Below, piece after piece: positions 10,134-37,146 of a DNA stretch of 39,437 nucleotides. This DNA comes from a virus (Duplodnaviria > Heunggongvirae > Uroviricota > Caudoviricetes), in the IMG/VR virus record IMGVR_UViG_2687453623_000006; one strand, 5' to 3'. Made by a program: the position numbers and the translations under genes. The notes under the pieces are model-generated. The model was given only the letters and a program-made list of their open reading frames with translations. It ran no database searches and was not told the DNA's origin. Position 1 is the first letter of the stretch. Each line of letters begins with the position of its first letter.

Positions 10134-10472
10134 ATGATCGGGTTACGTATTAAAGAAGAAAGAGAGCGTCTATCTCTTACACAGCAAGGGTTGGCTGATG
10201 CTATAGGTGTGGCAAAGAGAACTTTCATTGATTGGGAAAAAGATCGCACTTCTCCTACTGCAGTGCAGTTATCTGCACTATCAGAAATCGGTGTAGATAT
10301 TTTGTATGTAGTTACTGGGGTGCGGAGTCAGCCTGTTGTTGCACCTTATGTGTCACAAGAAAAGAAAGAGTTAATGGATGCATTCGACGAAATGAGCCCC
10401 GAACAACGGAGGGCAATTCTTGAGGTCGGCAAAGTCTTCATTCAACCCAAACCAAGCAAACTCGCAGGCTGA
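10134..10472 (+). CDS. XRE-family HTH repressor (lysogeny repressor candidate)
   Basis: Track ORF 9981..10472; HTH domain begins at the internal ATG 10134 (MIGLRIKEERERLSLTQQGLADAIGVAKRTFIDWEKDRTSPT); divergent from the early operon. Confidence 0.65.
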   Translation: MIGLRIKEERERLSLTQQGLADAIGVAKRTFIDWEKDRTSPTAVQLSALSEIGVDILYVVTGVRSQPVVAPYVSQEKKELMDAFDEMSPEQRRAILEVGKVFIQPKPSKLAG

Positions 10473-10557: not shown

Positions 10558-10590
10558 ACCGGAAAGCATTGTGCTTTCCGGTTTTGTTTC
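10558..10590 (+). terminator. Rho-independent terminator downstream of the repressor
   Basis: Perfect 11-bp stem ACCGGAAAGCA/TGCTTTCCGGT with 3-nt loop followed by TTTTGTTTC. Confidence 0.5.
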
Positions 10591-11353
10591 AGAAGTTGCA
10601 GATTACCAGTTCACGGCGCGGCGTAGATTTCCCCGCCAGACTGTAGTTGATGTTCACTGTCTGTATGTTCAGTCCAGTGAACACCTCGCGCATCTGTGGG
10701 ATATCGTTCACCGAAATTATCATTTTTCCTCTGATGCACCGGGCCAGCTCTGCCAGCCGCGAGTAGTTCCCTTCAGGAAAATCCACACCATAGCCTTCCG
10801 TACCCAGGTACGGTGGGTCGCAGTAGAACAGTGTGTGCGGACGATCATAACGCTCAATGCACTGTTGCCAGTCCATGTGTTCTATGACTGTTCTGGAAAG
10901 CCGCAGGTGTGCTGCTGACAGTTCTTCTTCAATACGCAGCAGGTTGAAGCGTGGCGGGGATGTGGTGGAGGTACCGAAGCTGTGCTCTGCCACCTTGCCG
11001 CCAAACGCCTGCTTCTGAAGGTAGTAGAACCGTGCCGCACGCTGGATATCCGTCAGTGTTTCTTCCGGGGTGATCTGCAGCCATTTGTAGATCTGACGGC
11101 TGACCAGCGCCCATTTGAACTGGCGGACAAATTCTTCCAGGTGATGCTTTACCACCCGGTACAGATTCACCAGTTCACCGTTGATATCATTGATGACTTC
11201 GATCTTGCCGGGTGTCTTAAGAAAATAGAGCGCTGCTGCCCCACAAAACGGCTCCACATAACATTCATGCGCCGGAAACAGCGGCAGGATGTGTTTTGCC
11301 AGGCGACGTTTGCCACCAATCCATGGAACGATGGGTAATGTCTTCATTTTCAT
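10589..11353 (-). CDS. dam: Dam-family DNA N6-adenine methyltransferase (orphan)
   Basis: 254 aa; N-terminal WIGGKRRL, SAM-binding motif EPFCGAAALYF, catalytic motif DPPY; no adjacent restriction endonuclease. Confidence 0.8.
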   Translation of the reverse strand: MKMKTLPIVPWIGGKRRLAKHILPLFPAHECYVEPFCGAAALYFLKTPGKIEVINDINGELVNLYRVVKHHLEEFVRQFKWALVSRQIYKWLQITPEETLTDIQRAARFYYLQKQAFGGKVAEHSFGTSTTSPPRFNLLRIEEELSAAHLRLSRTVIEHMDWQQCIERYDRPHTLFYCDPPYLGTEGYGVDFPEGNYSRLAELARCIRGKMIISVNDIPQMREVFTGLNIQTVNINYSLAGKSTPRRELVICNF

Positions 11354-11544
11354 AATCTGTAAGCCTTTTACAATTATTAAAAATATGGCAGGCTAGTCTG
11401 GTCTCGCGAGACTGACTGAACCTCGGTCGGCTCACAGCCACTTCTGTGGGACGATGGCCAGCCCGGTGGGTCCGAAGCACCGGGCTGGTCGTTCTTTCAT
11501 GATGCGGCAGGGATAGTGGGATTTCTGTTAATGTGGTTTAGGGA

Positions 11545-11760
11545 TTATCCGGGGCGATTTTCTGACCTTATCCGGTCCAGGGCATAAGTAATACCTTCTG
11601 CAAAAACAGAAGTATCAAACTGCTTTTGTATTCCCTGAAAATGAAAAGCGGCACGACAGACACTCAGTTCTCCGCGATGTAACCGGATAATATCTTCCAG
11701 AACATTGTTCACTGCTTCAGCACGGCGCTGATGTTCTGTTAACGTTAATCGGGGATTCAT
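11545..11760 (-). CDS. hypothetical protein (71 aa)
   Basis: ATG at 11760 preceded by AAGGAG at good spacing; no recognisable motif. Confidence 0.4.
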   Translation of the reverse strand: MNPRLTLTEHQRRAEAVNNVLEDIIRLHRGELSVCRAAFHFQGIQKQFDTSVFAEGITYALDRIRSENRPG

Positions 11761-12163
11761 GATGCACTCCTTAAATGATGATTTTTATGCACTCACCGGC
11801 AAAATATTCTGCCGATTACTGAACACGCATCCGGCACCTCAGGTTTTGATTTATTCTGGTTTTTTCGATATCCCGGACCAGGTTGATCACGACCAGAAAA
11901 AGTGCCGGTATTTTATTGATACGCTGATATGGCTTCGGGATAACAGCTATATTCGTTACTCTCAGTTGCTGGCTGTGGGAGCGGCTGATGTCGTCCTCAC
12001 GGAAAAAACGCTCCGTCTGCTCAATGCCACGCCGACCCTTCTGCAGCCCCGGCCCGCACCATTTAAAGAGTCACTTCTGGATGCAGTAAAAACCGGTGAA
12101 AATGCAGTCATCGCTGAATGCGTATCCCGGATTATGCGTTACGTGTTTAATGAACGTAAGTGA
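11759..12163 (+). CDS. hypothetical protein (134 aa)
   Basis: Start codon overlaps the start of the divergent 71-aa ORF; GGGGA upstream; 3' end overlaps the convergent P-loop gene by 25 bp. Confidence 0.3.
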   Translation: MMHSLNDDFYALTGKIFCRLLNTHPAPQVLIYSGFFDIPDQVDHDQKKCRYFIDTLIWLRDNSYIRYSQLLAVGAADVVLTEKTLRLLNATPTLLQPRPAPFKESLLDAVKTGENAVIAECVSRIMRYVFNERK

Positions 12164-12882
12164 GGTTTATCCGCTGTCTGCATAATCCCGATAGCCAGTG
12201 CGAGGGGAAGTAATTCCGGGGAAACTCTTTCAAACAGCGACTCCCATTCTCCTCTCGCCATCACTCTGTCCAGCCCGCCCCCCAGTTGCATTTCAGCAAT
12301 CTTCCTGATTTCCCGGAACAACGCCGCTTTGATCTCTTCGTGCTCAGCTTTATTTTCCGGTGTCAGAATGTATTCGTCGAAGAACCGGGGAGGCTGGTTA
12401 ACGGGGAGCGTGTTCACCGGGATGTGTTCCTGTTTCCCGTACTTCGGGGCAGAAAAACATTCTGTTGGCTGACCGGTGAGTTTACGTAGCTCCTTCATGA
12501 GCAGCTCCTGATCGTAAACTGTCATCAGTGCCGCAATGGTGGCATGCAGTGCATCGGGCAGTATCCAGGGTTGCCGGCCCGTGGGGCATATAACATCCAG
12601 CAGCTCATTCGTCCGACAGATACGCTCCTCGCCGTATGACAACAGGCCCTGTCCCGTGTATTCCTCCAGCCTGATCACTGTGCCACCCCGTGGCTTCTGC
12701 CAGGTCGTCAGATCATCGCCACTCATACGCCGCTCATCATCTACGTCTGCAGCATCGACAATGACGCTGCCCCCGAATTCCTGTTTCACCACTTCCTCTA
12801 TCCGCGCCAATATGTAACTTTTACCGCTGCCCACAGGACCGGACACGGTGACAGTGATGACCGGATTCAGTGTCTGCGTCAT
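12139..12882 (-). CDS. P-loop NTPase of unknown function
   Basis: 247 aa; Walker A GPVGSGKS at residues 15-22, candidate Walker B VIVDAADVDDE; GAGGAG RBS; transcribed divergently from the late operon. Confidence 0.55.
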   Translation of the reverse strand: MTQTLNPVITVTVSGPVGSGKSYILARIEEVVKQEFGGSVIVDAADVDDERRMSGDDLTTWQKPRGGTVIRLEEYTGQGLLSYGEERICRTNELLDVICPTGRQPWILPDALHATIAALMTVYDQELLMKELRKLTGQPTECFSAPKYGKQEHIPVNTLPVNQPPRFFDEYILTPENKAEHEEIKAALFREIRKIAEMQLGGGLDRVMARGEWESLFERVSPELLPLALAIGIMQTADKPHLRSLNT

Positions 12883-13012
12883 ATCGTATTCTCCTCTGTG
12901 AATAATTCATCGTTTATCCTGCACATCCCGTATCCCCGGCTCTCTTAACGCGCTTTAAAATCCTTCGCGCCCTGTATTTGTGATGCTGTCTCCACCAGAC
13001 AAGGAGACACAC

Positions 13013-13363
13013 ATGAAAAACCTGAAAAAATTCATTCCCCCTGTTAAAAAACCTCGCCTCAGCGGCTGGCTGCTGACCTCAGTGCTGTTGCTGGGCACCA
13101 TCGCTCTGGTCTCGCCACAGCAGTTGCCTGTTGTGATCTACAAGCTGGCACTCATCACGCTGGCAGCAGTGCTGGGTTACTGGCTTGACCGTTCGCTCTT
13201 CCCCAAAGCCCGTCCCGGTCAGTACCTGAAACATGACGACAGGCTGATGGCTGATGGGCGTTTCCCGGTACAGACCGGCCTTCACCTGGTGTTTTCTGCT
13301 GCGTTAATCCGCCGTGCACTGATTGTTGCAGCGGTCTGTCTGGCTGTTGCGATGGGGCTTTAA
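13013..13363 (+). CDS. putative holin / lysis membrane protein
   Basis: Track ORF from GTG 12980; preferred ATG 13013 with AAGGAG RBS; three hydrophobic segments; immediately upstream of the endolysin. Confidence 0.45.
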   Translation: MKNLKKFIPPVKKPRLSGWLLTSVLLLGTIALVSPQQLPVVIYKLALITLAAVLGYWLDRSLFPKARPGQYLKHDDRLMADGRFPVQTGLHLVFSAALIRRALIVAAVCLAVAMGL

Positions 13364-30919: not shown

Positions 30920-31131
30920 TGTTTCTTGAACATGTTACCCGTGACGGAGAGCGCTGGGATTCGCTGGCATGGCAGTACTACGGTGACCCGCTGGGCTATC
31001 CCCGGATTATTGCCGCCAATCCGCACGTGGCCATCACGCCGGTGCTGCCCTCCGGGCTGTTGTTACTGATCCCGGTGATTGAGGCTGAAGAAGCCCGTAC
31101 AGAAGAGGATATTGCCCCATGGCTGAGATAA
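30916..31131 (+). CDS. tail protein X-like (P2 gpX family)
   Basis: 71 aa; motif RWDSLAWQYYGD typical of gpX. Confidence 0.6.
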   Translation: MMFLEHVTRDGERWDSLAWQYYGDPLGYPRIIAANPHVAITPVLPSGLLLLIPVIEAEEARTEEDIAPWLR

Positions 31132-32291
31132 ACAGCACTGCGCAAGTCACATCAGCGTTAACCGGCGTCAGCGATGTGCTGACACCGGTGTTCACTCTGT
31201 GGTATCTGCAGAAAAACATCACCTCTGATATCGCGCCTTATGTCACCCGTGTGACCTGGAGCGATAACATCAAAAATGAGTCCGATACCATTGAGGTGGA
31301 GCTGGACGACACCGATGGCCGCTGGCTGGATAAGTGGTATCCGGGCAAGGGTGACACGCTGACGCTGAAAATGGGCTATCAGGACGAGAAGCTGCTGTCC
31401 TGCGGTACGTTCTCTATAGACGAGATCGAAGTGAGTTCGCCCGCTTCCGTTGTTTCTATCCGTGGGGTGGCCACCTCGGTTAACAGTGCCCTGCGGACTA
31501 AAACCAGTCGTGGTTTTGAGAACACCACGCTGGCAGCTGTTGCGGGGCGGATTGCCAGAAAGCACCGGCTGAAACTGGTGGGCAGCATTGAGTCCATCAG
31601 AATCGACCGGGTGACCCAGTATGCTGAAACCGACGTGGGTTTTCTGCGCCGGCTGGCCAGCGAGTATGGTTATGCAGTGAAAGTGGTCAGTGACCAGCTG
31701 ATTTTTTCTCATCTGGCCACACTGCGCAGTCAGGAGCCGGTCAGGCAGTTAAAACCGCAGGATGTGGCCCGCTTTTCCCTGCGTGACACCATCAACCGGG
31801 TCTATAAATCTGCAAAGGTAAAACACCAGAAAAGCAGCAGTAAAAAACTGATCGTCTACGAAGCTGATGGTGGTACCCGTGAAAGCGACAAAAAGCTCAA
31901 AGGTGGTAAGGTTACCAGCGCTGACTCACTTAAAGTTAACAGCCGCGTCAGCGACCCGGACAGTGCCCGGATTAAAGCGGATTCAGCACTGGCCAGACAT
32001 AACGAATACCAGCAGAACGGCTCCCTGACGCTGACGGGAACACCTCAACTGACAGCAGGCAACAAAATTGAACTGGTGGGTTTTGGGCAGTTATCCGGGC
32101 CATGGCTCATAACCACTGCCCGCCATGCGTTTGACCGTAACAGCGGCTACACCACAGAGCTGGAAGTGGCACGGGGGCCGATCACACAGGGCAAGGCGAA
32201 GAAAGGTAAAAAAATCGGCAAAACCCGGATGCTGACCATCTATAAACCGGACGGCAGCACGTCCACAGTAATAAGAGAGAAGAAAAAATGA
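31119..32291 (+). CDS. baseplate hub / late control D-like protein (P2 gpD, Mu P position)
   Basis: 390 aa; synteny between gpX-like and gpV-like genes. Confidence 0.7.
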   Translation: MAEINSTAQVTSALTGVSDVLTPVFTLWYLQKNITSDIAPYVTRVTWSDNIKNESDTIEVELDDTDGRWLDKWYPGKGDTLTLKMGYQDEKLLSCGTFSIDEIEVSSPASVVSIRGVATSVNSALRTKTSRGFENTTLAAVAGRIARKHRLKLVGSIESIRIDRVTQYAETDVGFLRRLASEYGYAVKVVSDQLIFSHLATLRSQEPVRQLKPQDVARFSLRDTINRVYKSAKVKHQKSSSKKLIVYEADGGTRESDKKLKGGKVTSADSLKVNSRVSDPDSARIKADSALARHNEYQQNGSLTLTGTPQLTAGNKIELVGFGQLSGPWLITTARHAFDRNSGYTTELEVARGPITQGKAKKGKKIGKTRMLTIYKPDGSTSTVIREKKK

Positions 32292-32884
32292 CTGGTGTCA
32301 CTCGTCAGGTCGGTACGGTCAGTGCCGTTGATGCCGACAGGGTTCAGGCCCGCGTTCGTCTGCCTGAATGCGATAACCTGCGCACAAACTGGCTTAACGT
32401 GCTGCAGCGCAATACCCAGGATAACAAAGATTACTGGCTCCCTGACGTGGGGGAGCAGGTTGAGGTGCTGCTCGATGCCAACGGCGAGGATGGTGTTATT
32501 CTGGGCGCGGTGTATTCAGACGTCGATAAACCACCGTTCAGTGACAAAAATATCCGGGGAACCCGGTTTGCTGATGGTGCAGAGTACAGCTACAACCGGA
32601 AGACGCACACTCTGATCATCCGGGGCGGCATTGAGCATATTGTCATTGAGTGTGGTGCTGATGTGGTATTGAAAACACAGAAAGCCACGATTGACGCACC
32701 GGAAACCGAACTTACCGGAGATCTGCGTGTCAGGGGTAAGCTGATTTACGAAGGAGGCATGGCGGGTTCTGGTGGTGAAGGTGTTACCGCGACCATCCAT
32801 GGCAATATCGAGATTAAAGGGAATGCCCATGCCACGGGCAGTATGTTGTCTGATGGCGAAAACTCCAGCCACCACTCCCACTGA
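32288..32884 (+). CDS. baseplate spike protein (P2 gpV-like)
   Basis: 198 aa; Gly-rich beta-helix-like C-terminal region ending in His-rich tip NSSHHSH. Confidence 0.7.
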   Translation: MTGVTRQVGTVSAVDADRVQARVRLPECDNLRTNWLNVLQRNTQDNKDYWLPDVGEQVEVLLDANGEDGVILGAVYSDVDKPPFSDKNIRGTRFADGAEYSYNRKTHTLIIRGGIEHIVIECGADVVLKTQKATIDAPETELTGDLRVRGKLIYEGGMAGSGGEGVTATIHGNIEIKGNAHATGSMLSDGENSSHHSH

Positions 32885-32938
32885 GCTTTTTAAACGCCTT
32901 TAATATCAGCGTTCCCGCACGGGGGCAATACTGCCCCC

Positions 32939-33286
32939 ATGAAAACAACCTCAGTATTCTGGCAACCGACCCTGCAGGCTCCCGGCGAAATTGTCCGGGG
33001 GCTGGATGATATCCGGCAGGCGATTCAAATTATCCTGCGGACTCCCCGCGGCAGCGACCCGCATCGCCCGGAGTTCGGCAGCAATCTGCATCTTTATATC
33101 GACTGGCCTGTAGACCGGGCCATTCCGCATGTGGTGCGCGAATCCGTCGATGCCATCCGACGCTGGGAGCCCCGCTGCCAGCTTATGTCAGTTAAACCCG
33201 CCGTCGACGGCGAACATCTTACGCTCCGGGTGAGCTGGAAAGGCTCAGACGGACAGACCCGGACTCAGGAGTTGCTATGGCGCTGA
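32939..33286 (+). CDS. baseplate wedge protein (GPW/gp25-like)
   Basis: 115 aa; motif RGSDPHRPEFGSNLHLYID characteristic of GPW/gp25. Confidence 0.7.
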   Translation: MKTTSVFWQPTLQAPGEIVRGLDDIRQAIQIILRTPRGSDPHRPEFGSNLHLYIDWPVDRAIPHVVRESVDAIRRWEPRCQLMSVKPAVDGEHLTLRVSWKGSDGQTRTQELLWR

Positions 33287-34380
33287 CAGAACCCGATTTT
33301 ATTGAACGCGATGCCGACAAAATCACGGCAGAAATGATTGCGAAGTATGAAGCGGATACCGGCAAAACGCTGTACCCGGCACAGGCAGAACGTCTGCTGA
33401 TTGATCTGTGGGCCTATCGCGAAATGCTGGTCAGGGTTGCGGTACAGGAGGCAGCAAAGCAGAATCTGGTCGCCTTTTCACGAGAGCCGATGATTGATTA
33501 CCTCGGAGAACTGGTTGGTGTATACCGCCTTGCCGCGCAGCCTGCCACCACCACACTTCAGTTCTCTGTGGATGAGGCACTGACCATTGATGTGCTGATC
33601 CCGGCAGGCACCCGCGTCAGCGCTTCCGACAGCGTTATTTTTGCCACCGATACAGATGTGGTACTGAAGGCCGGATTGCTGCTGGTCAATGTCACGTCCA
33701 CCTGTACCGAACCCGGTACCGCTGGTAACGGCTGGCAACCTGCGCAGGTCAGTCAGTTACTCGATGAGATTGATAACGTCGACCTGCTGGTGAGCAATCT
33801 GACGGCCAGTTCCGGCGGTTCAGAACAGGAAGACGATGACAGGCTCCGGGAGCGTATCAGGCTGGCCCCGGAGTCATTCACCAATGCCGGAAGCCGTGGC
33901 GCATACCGCTTTCATGCCATGCAGGCCCATCCCAACATTGTCGATGTTGCTGTGCTTTCCCCGGTTCCCGGGACCGTAGATCTGTATCCGCTGCTCAGTA
34001 CCGGTCTGCCGGACGGCGGTGTTCTCACGCTGGTAGAGAGTTTCTGCTCTGATGAGAAAGTCAGGCCACTCACTGATACAGTGCGGGCTAAAACACCAGT
34101 GAAGGTGGATTACACCATTGAAGCCAGGATTACGATCTATCGTGATCAGGATGCCAGGTCTGTAAAAGATGCCGCTAACAGCGCCATACAGAACTGGGTG
34201 GCATCACGTGCCGCCACGCTGGGGCGTGATATTGTCCCCAGCCAGATTATCAGTGCATTGTCCGTTTCCGGGGTGTACCAGGTTGAACTGGTGACACCGG
34301 CACTGAGGGTGGTGGCAGAAAACGAATGGGCAAACTGTACGGCGATCACACTTAACATGAGTGGAGTGTCTGATGACTGA
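33277..34380 (+). CDS. baseplate J-like protein
   Basis: 367 aa; synteny after W-like gene. Confidence 0.75.
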   Translation: MALTEPDFIERDADKITAEMIAKYEADTGKTLYPAQAERLLIDLWAYREMLVRVAVQEAAKQNLVAFSREPMIDYLGELVGVYRLAAQPATTTLQFSVDEALTIDVLIPAGTRVSASDSVIFATDTDVVLKAGLLLVNVTSTCTEPGTAGNGWQPAQVSQLLDEIDNVDLLVSNLTASSGGSEQEDDDRLRERIRLAPESFTNAGSRGAYRFHAMQAHPNIVDVAVLSPVPGTVDLYPLLSTGLPDGGVLTLVESFCSDEKVRPLTDTVRAKTPVKVDYTIEARITIYRDQDARSVKDAANSAIQNWVASRAATLGRDIVPSQIISALSVSGVYQVELVTPALRVVAENEWANCTAITLNMSGVSDD

Positions 34381-34951
34381 GCCATTACAACTCCCGCCAC
34401 CGCTTGAGGGTGATATCAGTCTCAGGACGCTGGGAAGACTGGCAGGGCGGCTGGATAACATCGACCTGAGCGTACTGATGGTCTTTCTCGTCGATATCGT
34501 CGACAGTTCTGCGCTGCCATGGCTGGGCGAGCAGTTCTCACTGTCTGGCGATGGCTGGGAGCTGGCGGAATCGGACGATGTTCGCCGCATGCTTATAAAA
34601 GCAGCCATCGAACTACACCGGTATAAAGGGACGCCGTGGTCAATCCGGGAAGTTATCCGCCGTTTTGGCTTTGGTGAAGTGGATCTGATTGAAGGCACAG
34701 GTCGTCTCAGTTACGACGGCAATCGCAGCTATAACGGACTGTTTGTTCATGGAGATGCAGCCGCCTGGGCGGTTTATCGCGTTATTCTGAAACAGCCCAT
34801 TACTAACGATCAGGCCGCGATGCTGCGTCAGACGCTCGCTGCATTTGCACCGGCCCGCTGCCATCTGGCCAGCCTGGAGTATCAGTCTGTGGCCATTCGC
34901 TATAACAATACCGCCATCCATGATGGCAGTTATAACCACGGGAGCAGTTGA
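34373..34951 (+). CDS. tail protein I-like (P2 gpI family)
   Basis: Track ORF from GTG 34361; preferred ATG 34373 overlapping the J stop; precedes tail fibre. Confidence 0.6.
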   Translation: MTEPLQLPPPLEGDISLRTLGRLAGRLDNIDLSVLMVFLVDIVDSSALPWLGEQFSLSGDGWELAESDDVRRMLIKAAIELHRYKGTPWSIREVIRRFGFGEVDLIEGTGRLSYDGNRSYNGLFVHGDAAAWAVYRVILKQPITNDQAAMLRQTLAAFAPARCHLASLEYQSVAIRYNNTAIHDGSYNHGSS

Positions 34952-37146
34952 TTATGGGAAACCTGAATGAAACAGAAAAGTGGGAAGAAAAAATCTATCA
35001 ACTGGAGACATCAGATCCGGTTCTGGGTGGTGCTGACGGGATATCAAATCGAGCCCCCCGGCAACTGGCAAACAGGACGAAATGGCTGAAGAAAAAAACG
35101 GAGGAAGCCGCACAGTCACTGGCTGAACACGTACGTTCCCGTAACCACCCGGACGCGACACTGACAGCTAAGGGGTTCACCCAACTGAGCAGTGCCACCA
35201 ACAGCACCTCTGAAACGCTGGCCGCCACACCAAAAGCCGTCAAGGCTGCATACGACCTTGCAGCCGGCAAGGCACCCGTCAGTCACACTCACCCGTGGAG
35301 TCAGATAACGGGAGTGCCTGCTGCCTCGCTGACGGCAAAAGGCACCGTACAGCTGAGCAGTGCCACGGACAGTCAATCAGAAACTGAGGCTGCCACGCCG
35401 AAGGCTGTGAAAATCGCGTATGATCTGGCCCGGGGAAAATACACAGCCCAGGATGCAACAACGACCCGTAAAGGGATCGTACAACTGAGCAGTGCCACCA
35501 ACAGCACCTCTGAAACGCTGGCCGCCACACCAAAGGCCGTCAAGGCTGCATATGACCTAGCTGCCGGCAAGGCCCCCGTCAGCCACACTCACCCGTGGAG
35601 TCAGATAACGGGAGTGCCTGCTGCCTCGCTGACGGCAAAAGGCACCGTACAACTGAGCAGCGCCACGGACAGTCAATCAGAAACTGAGGCTGCCACGCCG
35701 AAGGCTGTGAAAATCGCGTATGATCTGGCCCGGGGAAAATACACAGCCCAGGATGCAACAACGACCCGTAAAGGGATCGTACAACTGAGCAGTGCCACCA
35801 ACAGCACCTCTGAAACGCTGGCCGCCACACCAAAGGCCGTCAAGGCTGCATATGACCTGGCTGCCGGCAAGGCCCCCGTCAGCCACACTCACCCGTGGAG
35901 TCAGATAACGGGAGTGCCTGCTGCCTCGCTGACGGCAAAAGGCACCGTACAACTGAGCAGCGCCACGGACAGTCAATCAGAAACTGAGGCTGCCACGCCG
36001 AAGGCTGTGAAAATCGCGTATGATCTGGCCCGGGGAAAATACACAGCCCAGGATGCAACAACGACCCGTAAAGGGATCGTACAACTGAGCAGTGCCACCA
36101 ACAGCACCTCTGAAACGCTGGCCGCCACACCAAAGGCCGTCAAGGCTGCATATGACCTGGCTGCCGGCAAGGCCCCCGTCAGCCACACTCACCCGTGGAG
36201 TCAGATAACGGGAGTGCCTGCTGCCTCGCTGACGGCAAAAGGCACCGTACAACTGAGCAGCGCCACGGACAGTCAATCAGAAACTGAGGCTGCCACGCCG
36301 AAGGCGGTCAAGGCTGCATACGACCTTGCAGCCGGCAAGGCCCCCGTCAGCCACACTCACCCGTGGAGTCAGATAACGGGAGTGCCTGCTGCCTCGCTGA
36401 CGGCAAAAGGCACCATACAATTGAGCAGTGCCATCAACAGCACGTCTGAAATACTGGCCGCCACACCGAAAGCGGTCAAGGCTGCATACGATCTGGCAAA
36501 CGGAAAACAACCGGCAGATGCCACGCTCACTGCTCTGGCAGGACTTGCCACTGCAGCAGATCGGTTGCCTTATTTTACCGGAGCAGACCGCGCAGCGCTG
36601 GCAACCCTTACAGCTATTGGTCGCGCTATTATCGCTAAGGGCAGTATAAAAGATGTCCTCAATTACCTTGGTTTGGGGGAAGGCTCTGCATTGCCTGTTG
36701 GTGTGCCTGTTCCGTGGCCCACCGCCACACCGCCAGCAGGCTGGTTACAGTGCAACGGAGCTACGTTCACCAAAGAACAATATCCTGTTCTGGCCAGAGT
36801 CTACCCGACCCTCCGTCTTCCCGATTTACGCGGTGAGTTTATCCGTGGATGGGACGACGGGCGCAAGATTGACGAGGGGCGTAAGTTGCTTTCATGGCAG
36901 AAAGGTACACTGGTCGGCGGTCATGACGATAACGATTCTTCGCTGGATATCTCGTACATGAGTAACGGAAATAATATTGACTATGGCGGCGATAAGGTGT
37001 TTGCGGGGAATTACCGTAGCGATTATTTGTGGTACGCAATTCTGGGTGGAACAAACAGTCGCGCAAAAGCCGAATTAAACGGAGCATTCTTTAACATAAC
37101 CCGCCCCCGCAATATCGCGTTTAACTATATCGTGAGGGCGGCGTGA
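34948..37146 (+). CDS. tail fibre protein (constant N-terminus, repeat-rich shaft, exchangeable C-terminal cassette)
   Basis: 732 aa; repeated LSSAT(N/D)S(T/Q)SET(L/E)AATPKAVK(A/I)AYDLA motifs; C-terminal region homologous to two inverted downstream cassettes. Confidence 0.8.
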   Translation: MIMGNLNETEKWEEKIYQLETSDPVLGGADGISNRAPRQLANRTKWLKKKTEEAAQSLAEHVRSRNHPDATLTAKGFTQLSSATNSTSETLAATPKAVKAAYDLAAGKAPVSHTHPWSQITGVPAASLTAKGTVQLSSATDSQSETEAATPKAVKIAYDLARGKYTAQDATTTRKGIVQLSSATNSTSETLAATPKAVKAAYDLAAGKAPVSHTHPWSQITGVPAASLTAKGTVQLSSATDSQSETEAATPKAVKIAYDLARGKYTAQDATTTRKGIVQLSSATNSTSETLAATPKAVKAAYDLAAGKAPVSHTHPWSQITGVPAASLTAKGTVQLSSATDSQSETEAATPKAVKIAYDLARGKYTAQDATTTRKGIVQLSSATNSTSETLAATPKAVKAAYDLAAGKAPVSHTHPWSQITGVPAASLTAKGTVQLSSATDSQSETEAATPKAVKAAYDLAAGKAPVSHTHPWSQITGVPAASLTAKGTIQLSSAINSTSEILAATPKAVKAAYDLANGKQPADATLTALAGLATAADRLPYFTGADRAALATLTAIGRAIIAKGSIKDVLNYLGLGEGSALPVGVPVPWPTATPPAGWLQCNGATFTKEQYPVLARVYPTLRLPDLRGEFIRGWDDGRKIDEGRKLLSWQKGTLVGGHDDNDSSLDISYMSNGNNIDYGGDKVFAGNYRSDYLWYAILGGTNSRAKAELNGAFFNITRPRNIAFNYIVRAA
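35150..36520 (+). repeat. in-frame tandem array of near-identical 300-bp (100-aa) units in the tail-fibre shaft, about 4.5 copies
   Basis: CTGAGCAGTGCCACCAACAGCACCTCTGAAACGCTGGCC recurs at 35185, 35485, 35785 and 36085; identical antisense ORFs in the track at 300-bp offsets. Confidence 0.85.
36661..36867 (+). repeat. inversion-site homology block A inside the tail-fibre gene (gix-like crossover site at its 5' edge)
   Basis: About 200 bp nearly identical in inverted orientation to 38086..38290 and 38599..38811; 5' edge ACCTTGGTTTGGGGG resembles the Gin/Hin crossover core (AAACC-NN-GGTTT). Confidence 0.7.

Follow-up and report, generated by a model that had tools for sequence, protein, structure and literature searches.

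A predicted small RNA, conserved by covariation beside DNA-modification genes of temperate phages, upstream of dam in a BcepMu-like prophage of Escherichia coli

In the IstR-1/tisB and OhsC/shoB systems, a small RNA with a constitutive-looking promoter is encoded divergently beside a gene with a harmful product, and a short region of the RNA is related to the translation signals of its target. On rpoS, a leader segment hides the ribosome-binding region, and the activating RNAs DsrA and RprA compete for the inhibitory arm. The c4 RNA of phage P1 and the CI RNA of phage P4 have a terminal stem enclosing two hairpins. Among phage DNA-modification genes, the comparable system is the com-mom region of phage Mu. 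Expression of mom does harm and is kept under strict control, and in Mu-like prophages the mom position is occupied by com together with adenine methylases (PMC3299994). At the Mu mom promoter (Pmom), the divergent promoters momP1 and momP2 compete for RNA polymerase (PMC4287176). Here we analyze a 39,437-nt stretch of prophage DNA (IMG/VR record IMGVR_UViG_2687453623_000006; hereafter the window) and, within it, the spacer upstream of a dam gene. Comparative sequence evidence makes it very probable that positions 11386-11500 are a plus-strand small-RNA gene, one member of a family that is apparently undescribed and absent from Rfam.

The element shares several features with the com-mom control region of Mu. 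It lies immediately upstream of a phage modification (anti-restriction) gene, the class of gene for which untimely expression, in the case of mom, is harmful (PMC3299994), and its predicted promoter is divergent and back to back with the modification-gene promoter region, as momP1 and momP2 are (PMC4287176). Many members of the RNA family have a Com gene before the enzyme, and one has a genuine Mom. The differences are that a covariance model of the RNA (below) finds neither a homologue in Mu nor homology to the Pmom region (Mu 31000-36717, E <= 10), and that control in Mu has been described via proteins (the activator C, OxyR/Dam and the translational activator Com). No structured RNA product of momP2 is reported in PMC3299994 or PMC4287176.

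The window, a BcepMu-like transposable prophage, sits in the E. coli gene ssuB and is 100% identical to many E. coli chromosomes; the nearest isolated phage is PhiKM, classified as Bcepmuvirus. Its dam product is a D12-class adenine methyltransferase (Pfam PF02086, E = 6e-29). The gene runs on the minus strand from an ATG at 11353 to a stop at 10589 and converges on a helix-turn-helix (HTH) repressor-like gene (10134-10472, plus strand). The spacer extends from the dam ATG to the stop of a 71-aa minus-strand open reading frame (ORF) at 11545. It occurs in 555 of 5426 complete E. coli genomes, roughly one in ten and including ST131-type strains, and is unannotated in all of them.

A preliminary description had called this spacer highly structured, and folding bears this out on both strands. 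The plus strand folds at -76.9 kcal/mol (z = -4.3), with none of 200 shuffles as good, and the minus strand is also better than shuffled sequence (z = -3.7). Comparison with relatives gives the following anatomy, in which the helices are named P1, P3 and P4 and the first junction J1.

11351..11367, minus strand: dam translation initiation region, with the start codon at 11353-11351, the Shine-Dalgarno (SD) sequence AAGG at 11367-11364 and GGCTTACAG at 11365-11357.
11368..11385, no strand assigned: A/T-rich (GAAAATA-like) block between the divergent genes, also seen in many relatives; its role is inferred.
11386..11394, plus strand: predicted extended -10 promoter, with TG at 11386-11387 and the hexamer CAGGCT at 11389-11394; the family consensus is TGnTAGGCT.
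11399..11414, plus strand: P1, a 5'-terminal hairpin that is a perfect palindrome (TGGTCTCG and CGAGACTG); the predicted RNA start is at about 11400-11402.
11415..11421, plus strand: 5' strand of the basal stem (ACTGAAC), which pairs with 11491-11497 and closes a three-way junction.
11422..11430, plus strand: junction J1 (CTCGGTCGG; family consensus CCUUGG...), in which CCTTGG is nearly invariant in our alignments A1 and A3.
11431..11450, plus strand: P3 hairpin, with CTCACAG at 11431-11437, the loop CCACTT and CTGTGGG at 11444-11450.
11456..11490, plus strand: P4, a long GC-rich hairpin that is the predicted terminator stem and includes the perfect 11-bp stem.
11491..11500, plus strand: 3' strand of the basal stem (GTTCTTT, 11491-11497) and a pyrimidine/U-rich tail; the predicted RNA 3' end, with conservation ending at about 11499.
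11527..11546, plus strand: degenerate copy of a late-promoter-like motif (TCTGTTAATGTGGTTTAGGGAT), outside the RNA, marking the edge of an apparent 1.4-kb insertion.

The motifs of the preliminary description are real, and its coordinates are off by 6-14 nt. The perfect 11-bp stem with a 9-nt loop (CCAGCCCGGTG and CACCGGGCTGG) lies at 11458-11468 / 11478-11488 rather than at about 11452..11482, and the tract said to follow it on the plus strand is TCGTTCTTTC at 11489-11498. The 10-bp palindrome TCTCGCGAGA is at 11402-11411 instead of about 11416..11425 and extends to 12 bp, GTCTCGCGAGAC, at 11401-11412. An AT-rich block is present at 11366-11388, as claimed, and 11500-11544 lies outside the conserved element. 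A program-made call places a 71-aa ORF with a GTG start (11265..11480, minus strand) across the region. In relatives the stems vary by compensatory substitutions, which is the pattern of RNA structure and not of coding sequence.

Covariation is extensive. RNAalifold on 35 diverse sequences predicts 25 pairs, of which 22 show compensatory changes. In 72 distinct sequences, 94.1% of cells are paired, 24 of the 25 pairs show double-sided changes, and the covariation score is 0.641 against 0.236 in shuffles; when the partner strand is slid as a control, pairing falls to 38-49%. A separate set of 68 distinct IMG/VR sequences is 98.3% paired (both the 72- and the 68-sequence alignments were fitted to the covariance model described below). 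Across the family, compensatory changes occur in all seven pairs of the basal stem, and in all twelve pairs of P4 in both independent sequence sets. P3 has six pairs, five of them compensated and 94.8% paired, and one of its pairs is a conserved U.G in 45 of the 72 sequences.

The wobble pairs indicate the strand. In the 72 sequences, G.U/U.G cells number 203 and A.C/C.A cells 29, so the helices exist on the plus strand of the window, antisense to dam, where 94% of cells pair; on the dam strand the figure would be only 84%. The apical helix of P4 (A3 columns 114-130) keeps GUGY...RCAC across beta- and gammaproteobacteria while its tetraloop varies, and the pair beside the loop shows a U.G to C.A exchange. 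This conserved apex suggests a recognition site for a conserved partner. We also considered a peptide encoded inside the RNA. By inspection, about 21 codons follow a plus-strand ATG at 11454 and traverse P4; since P4 varies by compensatory changes, such a peptide would not be conserved, and the candidate was rejected.

Across the 72 distinct homologues, the hexamer upstream of P1 resembles a sigma-70 -10 element, with T at position 1 in 63, A at position 2 in 71 and T at position 6 in all 72; TAGGCT, TAGAAT, TAAACT, TACGCT and TATGAT are among its variants. Upstream of it, G stands at -14 in 58 of the 72 and TG in 29. The scan for promoter consensus sequences did not list the extended -10 element of the window. 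It returned a consensus promoter, TTTTCA-16-TACAAT (11347-11374), that is not conserved in relatives and was set aside, and it found no minus-strand sigma-70 consensus match within 11368..11385. A dam promoter with a short leader would have to sit in that block, back to back with the RNA promoter. Pairing of the -10 region (TAGGCT) with J1 (AGCCUUGG) as an extension of P1 fails by eye in 17 TAGAAT homologues and was dropped.

At the other end, the family tail past the last helix is 53% U and 84% pyrimidine, while the RNA body is 22% U. The window tail has six T in ten positions directly after P4, and the terminator scan flags 11469-11486 plus the tail. Thus P4 and its tail have the sequence features of an intrinsic (Rho-independent) terminator. 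Two options raised in the preliminary description, a small RNA and a terminator of a plus-strand transcript, then fall together: the conserved -10 element, the covarying structure and the G.U pairs confined to the plus strand point to a plus-strand RNA gene, and the 11-bp hairpin with its T-rich tract would be the 3' end of that gene. The predicted RNA measures 99-108 nt in the family and spans about 11401 to about 11498 in the window.

The element is conserved well beyond E. coli. In other genera, blastn finds DNA similarity to the spacer only over 11355-11499, ending just past the hairpin and T-rich tract. A scan anchored on the Dam protein, with one genome per species, returned 80 loci. By eye, the block upstream of dam recurs in Enterobacterales, Burkholderia, Paraburkholderia, Chromobacterium, Iodobacter, Nitrosomonas, Methylophilaceae and others, with the helices altered in sequence and their pairing kept. 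A covariance model, R1, was built from the RNAalifold alignment of the 35 diverse sequences. It matches all 73 searched sources from beta- and gammaproteobacteria (E = 1e-10 to 1e-27), always on the strand antisense to dam, and reaches only about 20 bits on the opposite strand. The window match (11379-11508, plus strand, 74.5 bits, E = 6e-18, model positions 1-129) is obtained by construction, because the window is in the seed alignment; independent sequences score 47-109 bits. The model also matches 80 of 80 IMG/VR contigs and three isolated phages, Burkholderia phage vB_E438 (with a lambdoid layout), Pseudomonas phage Bise and Stenotrophomonas phage phiSHP3. Mu and BcepMu were considered as possible carriers of a homologue. 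Both lack a covariance-model match (in Mu, 31000-36717 has none at E <= 10), and BcepMu has no dam at this position. Apparently, the phages with this element harbor one large, widespread RNA family of temperate phages.

The RNA is not a member of a catalogued family. The preliminary description had proposed folding and an Rfam covariance search as checks, and of these the folding supports structure while Rfam 15 gives no match at gathering anywhere in the window. Even at E <= 10, nothing credible appears in 11200-11800 or in 12 homologous loci; all matches (ctRNA_pGA1, PtaRNA1, SymR, C4) are subthreshold and at the level of shape. ARAGORN finds no tRNA or tmRNA gene in the window. Our literature search on noncoding RNAs of BcepMu- and Mu-like phages, on the mom promoter and on phage structured RNAs with methyltransferases found no description of the RNA.

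The tight linkage of the RNA to modification genes is the first indication of what it may do. When IMG/VR was scanned with a pattern taken from the RNA alone (J1 plus P3), 89 contigs matched, and 80 loci were examined. An adjacent divergent Dam homologue (54-81% identity) is present in 67 of these, four have too little flank, and nine have sufficient flank and no Dam. Among the nine, one has the order RNA, Com, Mom (Pfam Mom PF25680, E = 3.6e-73), two have RNA, Com and an N6_N4 methylase, and in one the RNA is directly adjoined by an N6_N4 methylase. A Com zinc-ribbon gene (PF10122) also stands between the RNA and dam in several Dam loci. The divergent geometry is fixed, the RNA lying 40-100 nt from the start codon of its neighbor in most cases. 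Since the neighbors are Dam, N6_N4 or Mom, with or without Com, the RNA belongs to a modification (mom-like, anti-restriction) cassette whatever its enzyme.

Some loci in these sets have other arrangements. In three IMG/VR contigs (L114, L139 and L166), lower-scoring RNA copies (62.5 bits) have an altered -10 region and sit beside a 506-aa tail-fiber-like ORF rather than a modification gene; they may be remnants after module loss. In phage Bise (1061-2264 of our locus L085), a reverse-transcriptase family gene is convergent with the RNA and ends 42 nt from the RNA 3' end, and an unannotated ORF for a Com-like zinc ribbon (MTEIRCAACSRKL...) occupies the approximately 190 nt that separate dam from the RNA promoter. 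We also considered that the RNA might be the leader of a late (holin) operon. This holds only for the layout in some Enterobacterales; elsewhere, the downstream genes mostly converge on the RNA.

The second indication is a resemblance between the RNA and the ribosome-binding region of its neighbor. Between its SD and its start codon, the divergent gene (dam or com) has a stretch similar in sequence to the P3 5' arm; in the window, GGCTTACAG (11365-11357, minus strand) and GGCTCACAG (11429-11437, plus strand) match at eight of nine positions. The mimic tracks lineage-specific changes in P3 (the CTTGCAG, TTCAC, CCTACG and CCGCCAC types). When each P3 type is represented once, the identities number 6.25 of 9 in cognate pairs and 5.38 of 9 in non-cognate pairs, and the observed value was not attained in any of 10000 permutations. 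The end of the mimic falls between -3 and +4 nt relative to the start codon in 22 of 26 cases.

Because the initiation region mimics the P3 5' arm, a dam-sense read-through transcript carries the complement of that arm, an anti-TIR (TIR, translation initiation region). In predicted minimum free energy (MFE) structures of the sense leader, the initiation region is paired to the anti-TIR in 36 of 68 loci, the window among them, and the alternative P3' hairpin forms in 24 of 68. Sense read-through of the RNA gene is plausible in loci with co-directional upstream genes and no minus-strand terminator, as in the window, where the 71-aa ORF ending at 11545 lies upstream and is co-directional, and in Mu-like layouts; the leader model requires such transcription. 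The initiation region pairs with the P3 3' arm less well than P3 pairs with itself (5.68 versus 6.50 of 7). A separate candidate was strong base pairing between the small RNA and the dam initiation region itself. Whole-RNA duplex energies are no better than those of shuffled sequences, so strong direct pairing in trans is not supported.

We propose the following sequence of events. The extended -10 promoter would start transcription at about 11401, divergent from dam, and yield a product of about 100 nt with P1 followed by P3 and P4, closed in most relatives by the 7-bp basal stem and ending in a U/C-rich stretch at about 11498. This RNA may act as a counter-transcript-type regulator of the modification gene. 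In read-through dam-sense transcripts, the complement of the P3 5' arm would pair with and hide the SD and start of dam, and the small RNA, which is fully complementary to the read-through leader, would pair with that leader. The role that we favor would be insulating and negative, keeping a potentially harmful methylase silent unless transcription begins at the proper dam promoter. Silencing could proceed by promoter competition (as for momP2 in Mu) or by antisense pairing with or cleavage of read-through transcripts, acting together with self-sequestration of the leader.

The proposal builds on direct observations, namely the conservation, the covariation, the strand, the promoter- and terminator-like signals, the genomic linkage and the co-variation of the initiation region with the P3 5' arm. 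Regulation of dam is supported indirectly, by the tight linkage to modification genes and by that co-variation. Control of the neighbor through P3 and the initiation region is accordingly a tentative reading, to which we give slightly less than an even chance; the same falls to the RNA gene and a regulatory link taken together. That the effect is negative is possible and, in our judgment, doubtful.

A number of points weigh against these proposals. The promoter and both ends of the RNA are predictions. The window hexamer, CAGGCT, has C for T at position 1 (-12), with the TG present, and U runs of at least four occur in just 30 of 72 family tails. The basal stem is weak in the window, where only GAAC/GTTC plus one A-U can pair, and the MFE structure favors a local hairpin, GACUGA/UCGGUC, over it; the E. 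coli variant is a somewhat degenerate member of the family. RNAduplex energies for the small RNA and the dam initiation region do not improve on those of shuffles (mean z = -0.04). Sense read-through is not obvious in relatives with the holin gene on the other side. The perfect palindromy of P1 has no place in the model. Finally, an RNA that mimics the initiation region is a hallmark of anti-antisense activators, and the effect could be positive.

The last point makes activation a serious rival, because mimicry of an initiation region is typical of activators. The RNA would then pair with a long leader, or trigger its cleavage by RNase III, and free the initiation region of dam (or com). The initiation region is similar, not complementary, to the exposed-strand P3 arm and co-varies with it, and the P3 5' arm matches the anti-TIR perfectly. 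The prediction that the sense leader alternates, adopting the sequestering helix in 36 of 68 loci and the P3' hairpin in 24, fits as well, as do the G.U pairs of P3, which turn into A.C mismatches in the leader and so weaken P3' and favor sequestration. However, the seemingly constitutive sigma-70 promoter would offer a potentially harmful gene no obvious control point, known counter-transcripts are repressors, and relatives without upstream co-directional genes would have no long leader as a target. We regard activation as unlikely on balance.

Somewhat less likely again is a stand-alone small or protein-binding RNA that has its target elsewhere, in a host mRNA, a host protein or a defense/anti-defense function, and merely shares a mobile cassette with the modification gene. 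CCUUGG in J1 and GUGY/RCAC at the P4 apex are conserved across very distant hosts whatever the enzyme family of the neighbor, the elaborate three-way junction exceeds what most antisense RNAs require, and the palindromy of P1 suggests dimerization or a symmetric partner. This reading has to contend with the very tight linkage to three unrelated modification-gene families in a fixed divergent geometry, and it leaves the co-variation with the neighbor's initiation region unexplained.

The locus might instead work at the level of DNA or transcription, as an insulator in which a decoy divergent promoter like momP2 and a strong hairpin would block or terminate transcription arriving from adjacent operons, with a functionless RNA product. 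Its back-to-back promoter geometry is like that of momP1/momP2, P4 is a strong GC hairpin between convergent units in vB_E438, phiSHP3, Bise and the window, and P1 is a perfect DNA palindrome. Yet a conserved three-way junction is more than a terminator or decoy promoter requires, strand-specific G.U pairs accompany the covariation of every helix, the basal stem and P3 among them, and no U run follows P4 on the dam-sense strand in the window. We consider an insulator improbable. Least probable is a cis-acting 5' leader of riboswitch or attenuator type, carried by the minus-strand dam mRNA, with a distinct plus-strand RNA being absent: the minus strand folds well (z = -3.7), its predicted fold sequesters the dam SD, and ligand sensing is conceivable given that dam uses S-adenosylmethionine, but the reading is contradicted by the excess of G.U over A.C (203 versus 29), by pairing of 84% on the minus strand versus 94% on the plus strand, by covariance-model scores of about 20 bits there versus 50-109 bits on the plus strand, by a TAnnnT element conserved at suitable spacing from P1 on the plus strand, and by the lack of any Rfam riboswitch match.

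P1 poses a problem of its own. In 50 of 58 distinct homologues, it is an even palindrome from its exact center, counting at least six Watson-Crick or G.T pairs; the sequences are unrelated, and the tetraloops are self-complementary, such as UCGA, GGCC, GCGC and GUAC (A3 columns 17-45). Its cells include 49 G.T and 22 A.C; P3 and P4 have no such palindromy. The preliminary description had suggested an operator for dam. No further copy of the palindrome beyond chance occurs in the 39-kb window, so it is not an operator shared with a late activator or repressor, and a protein operator is not supported, the palindrome being unique in the window and forming the 5' hairpin of the RNA. The palindromy could reflect RNA dimerization, a symmetric protein site or hairpin-templated mutation.

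Against this background, the described regulatory RNAs offer partial parallels. The plasmid RNA ctRNA_pGA1 (RF00236) likewise has a short hairpin, whose loop measures 6-7 nt, ahead of a long GC-rich terminator hairpin with a U tail, and is encoded antisense to the leader of the gene to be controlled. Its model matches P3, P4 and the tail on the correct strand, below threshold, in four of 12 loci (24-31 bits, best 30.8 in locus L016; gathering 45), with no match reported for the window. It has no counterpart of the basal stem, P1 or J1, serves plasmid replication rather than a phage modification module, and for the RNA described here no overlap with target coding sequence is shown. Type I antitoxin RNAs (IstR-1/tisB, OhsC/shoB, SymR, PtaRNA1) share the position of a divergent small RNA beside a potentially harmful gene, and SymR and PtaRNA1 reach 28.4 bits (gathering 61) and 22.9 bits (gathering 47) on homologous loci. 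Here, however, the neighbor is a 250-aa enzyme, sometimes after Com, and not a small toxic peptide, and the RNA segment in question is similar to the ribosome-binding region instead of being just its complement.

DsrA and RprA are comparable in that the RNA described here has a segment that mimics the ribosome-binding region and its putative leader has a hiding segment. Those RNAs are trans-encoded and Hfq-dependent and have limited complementarity, whereas the RNA here is encoded on the opposite strand and is fully complementary to the putative leader. C4 (RF01695) is likewise a phage-encoded structured regulatory RNA. It scores 14.8 bits on the homologue L016 against a gathering threshold of 45, with no match reported for the window, and it differs in genomic context; there is no sign here of processing from a longer leader.

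The surroundings of the RNA gene hold further features. On its right, a stretch of about 1.4 kb (~11500-12940) contains three ORFs, of 71 aa (minus strand), 134 aa (plus strand) and 247 aa (minus strand, with a weak AAA match). The 134-aa ORF (11759..12163) and the 71-aa ORF (11760..11545) stand back to back with start codons that overlap by 2 nt (11757-11762); both are hypothetical in RefSeq and have no Pfam match. As the overlapping start codons leave no room for promoters, at least one of the ORFs may be spurious, or the promoters may be embedded. The stretch looks like an insertion between the small-RNA gene and a late-promoter-like motif, and in two relatives (L018 and L006) the RNA, the motif and the holin gene follow in direct succession without it. 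The motif is conserved (TCTTAACGCnCTTTAAAATCC) and precedes the holin start by about 50 nt; a second, degenerate copy stands just to the right of the RNA. A good copy, TCTTAACGCGCTTTAAAATCC, is found at 12941-12962, before the holin ATG at 13013, and a relaxed pattern of the motif has nine matches in the window versus 1.9 expected. The motif at 12941-12962 is probably a late, perhaps Mor-dependent, promoter of BcepMu-like phages in Enterobacterales.

On the other side of dam, between it and the convergent HTH repressor-like gene, an 11-bp hairpin (ACCGGAAAGCA..TGCTTTCCGGT) at 10558-10582 is followed by a plus-strand T-run and is a candidate bidirectional terminator. In phage PhiKM (locus L002, 5289-6143), the deposited dam coding sequence is 855 bp, with a 5' end about 90 nt longer than that of the 765-bp gene conserved elsewhere. 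Since it runs into the divergent promoter region, its start is probably mis-called.

The regulation of mom, a classic example of control in several layers, has been described solely for Mu and via proteins. The present finding points to a conserved RNA component at the counterpart anti-restriction modules (with Dam-like, N6_N4 or Mom enzymes) that many temperate phages carry in beta- and gammaproteobacteria. It provides a well-defined, covariation-supported RNA family absent from Rfam, a concrete hypothesis in the ribosome-binding-site mimic and anti-TIR pairing, and a structural puzzle in the palindromic 5' hairpin. We speculate, while thinking it rather less probable than otherwise, that a two-strand RNA switch times harmful phage DNA-modification enzymes in place of the protein-based C/OxyR/Dam control of Mu. 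In such a switch, the anti-TIR would silence read-through, the RNA with its P3 mimic would set the lock, and P1 would be a dimerization or symmetric recognition element; the cassette would move among Mu-like, BcepMu-like and lambdoid phages and be re-used with three unrelated enzyme families. If the RNA gates broad-specificity methylases, it would bear on how prophages silence such enzymes and how phages evade restriction.

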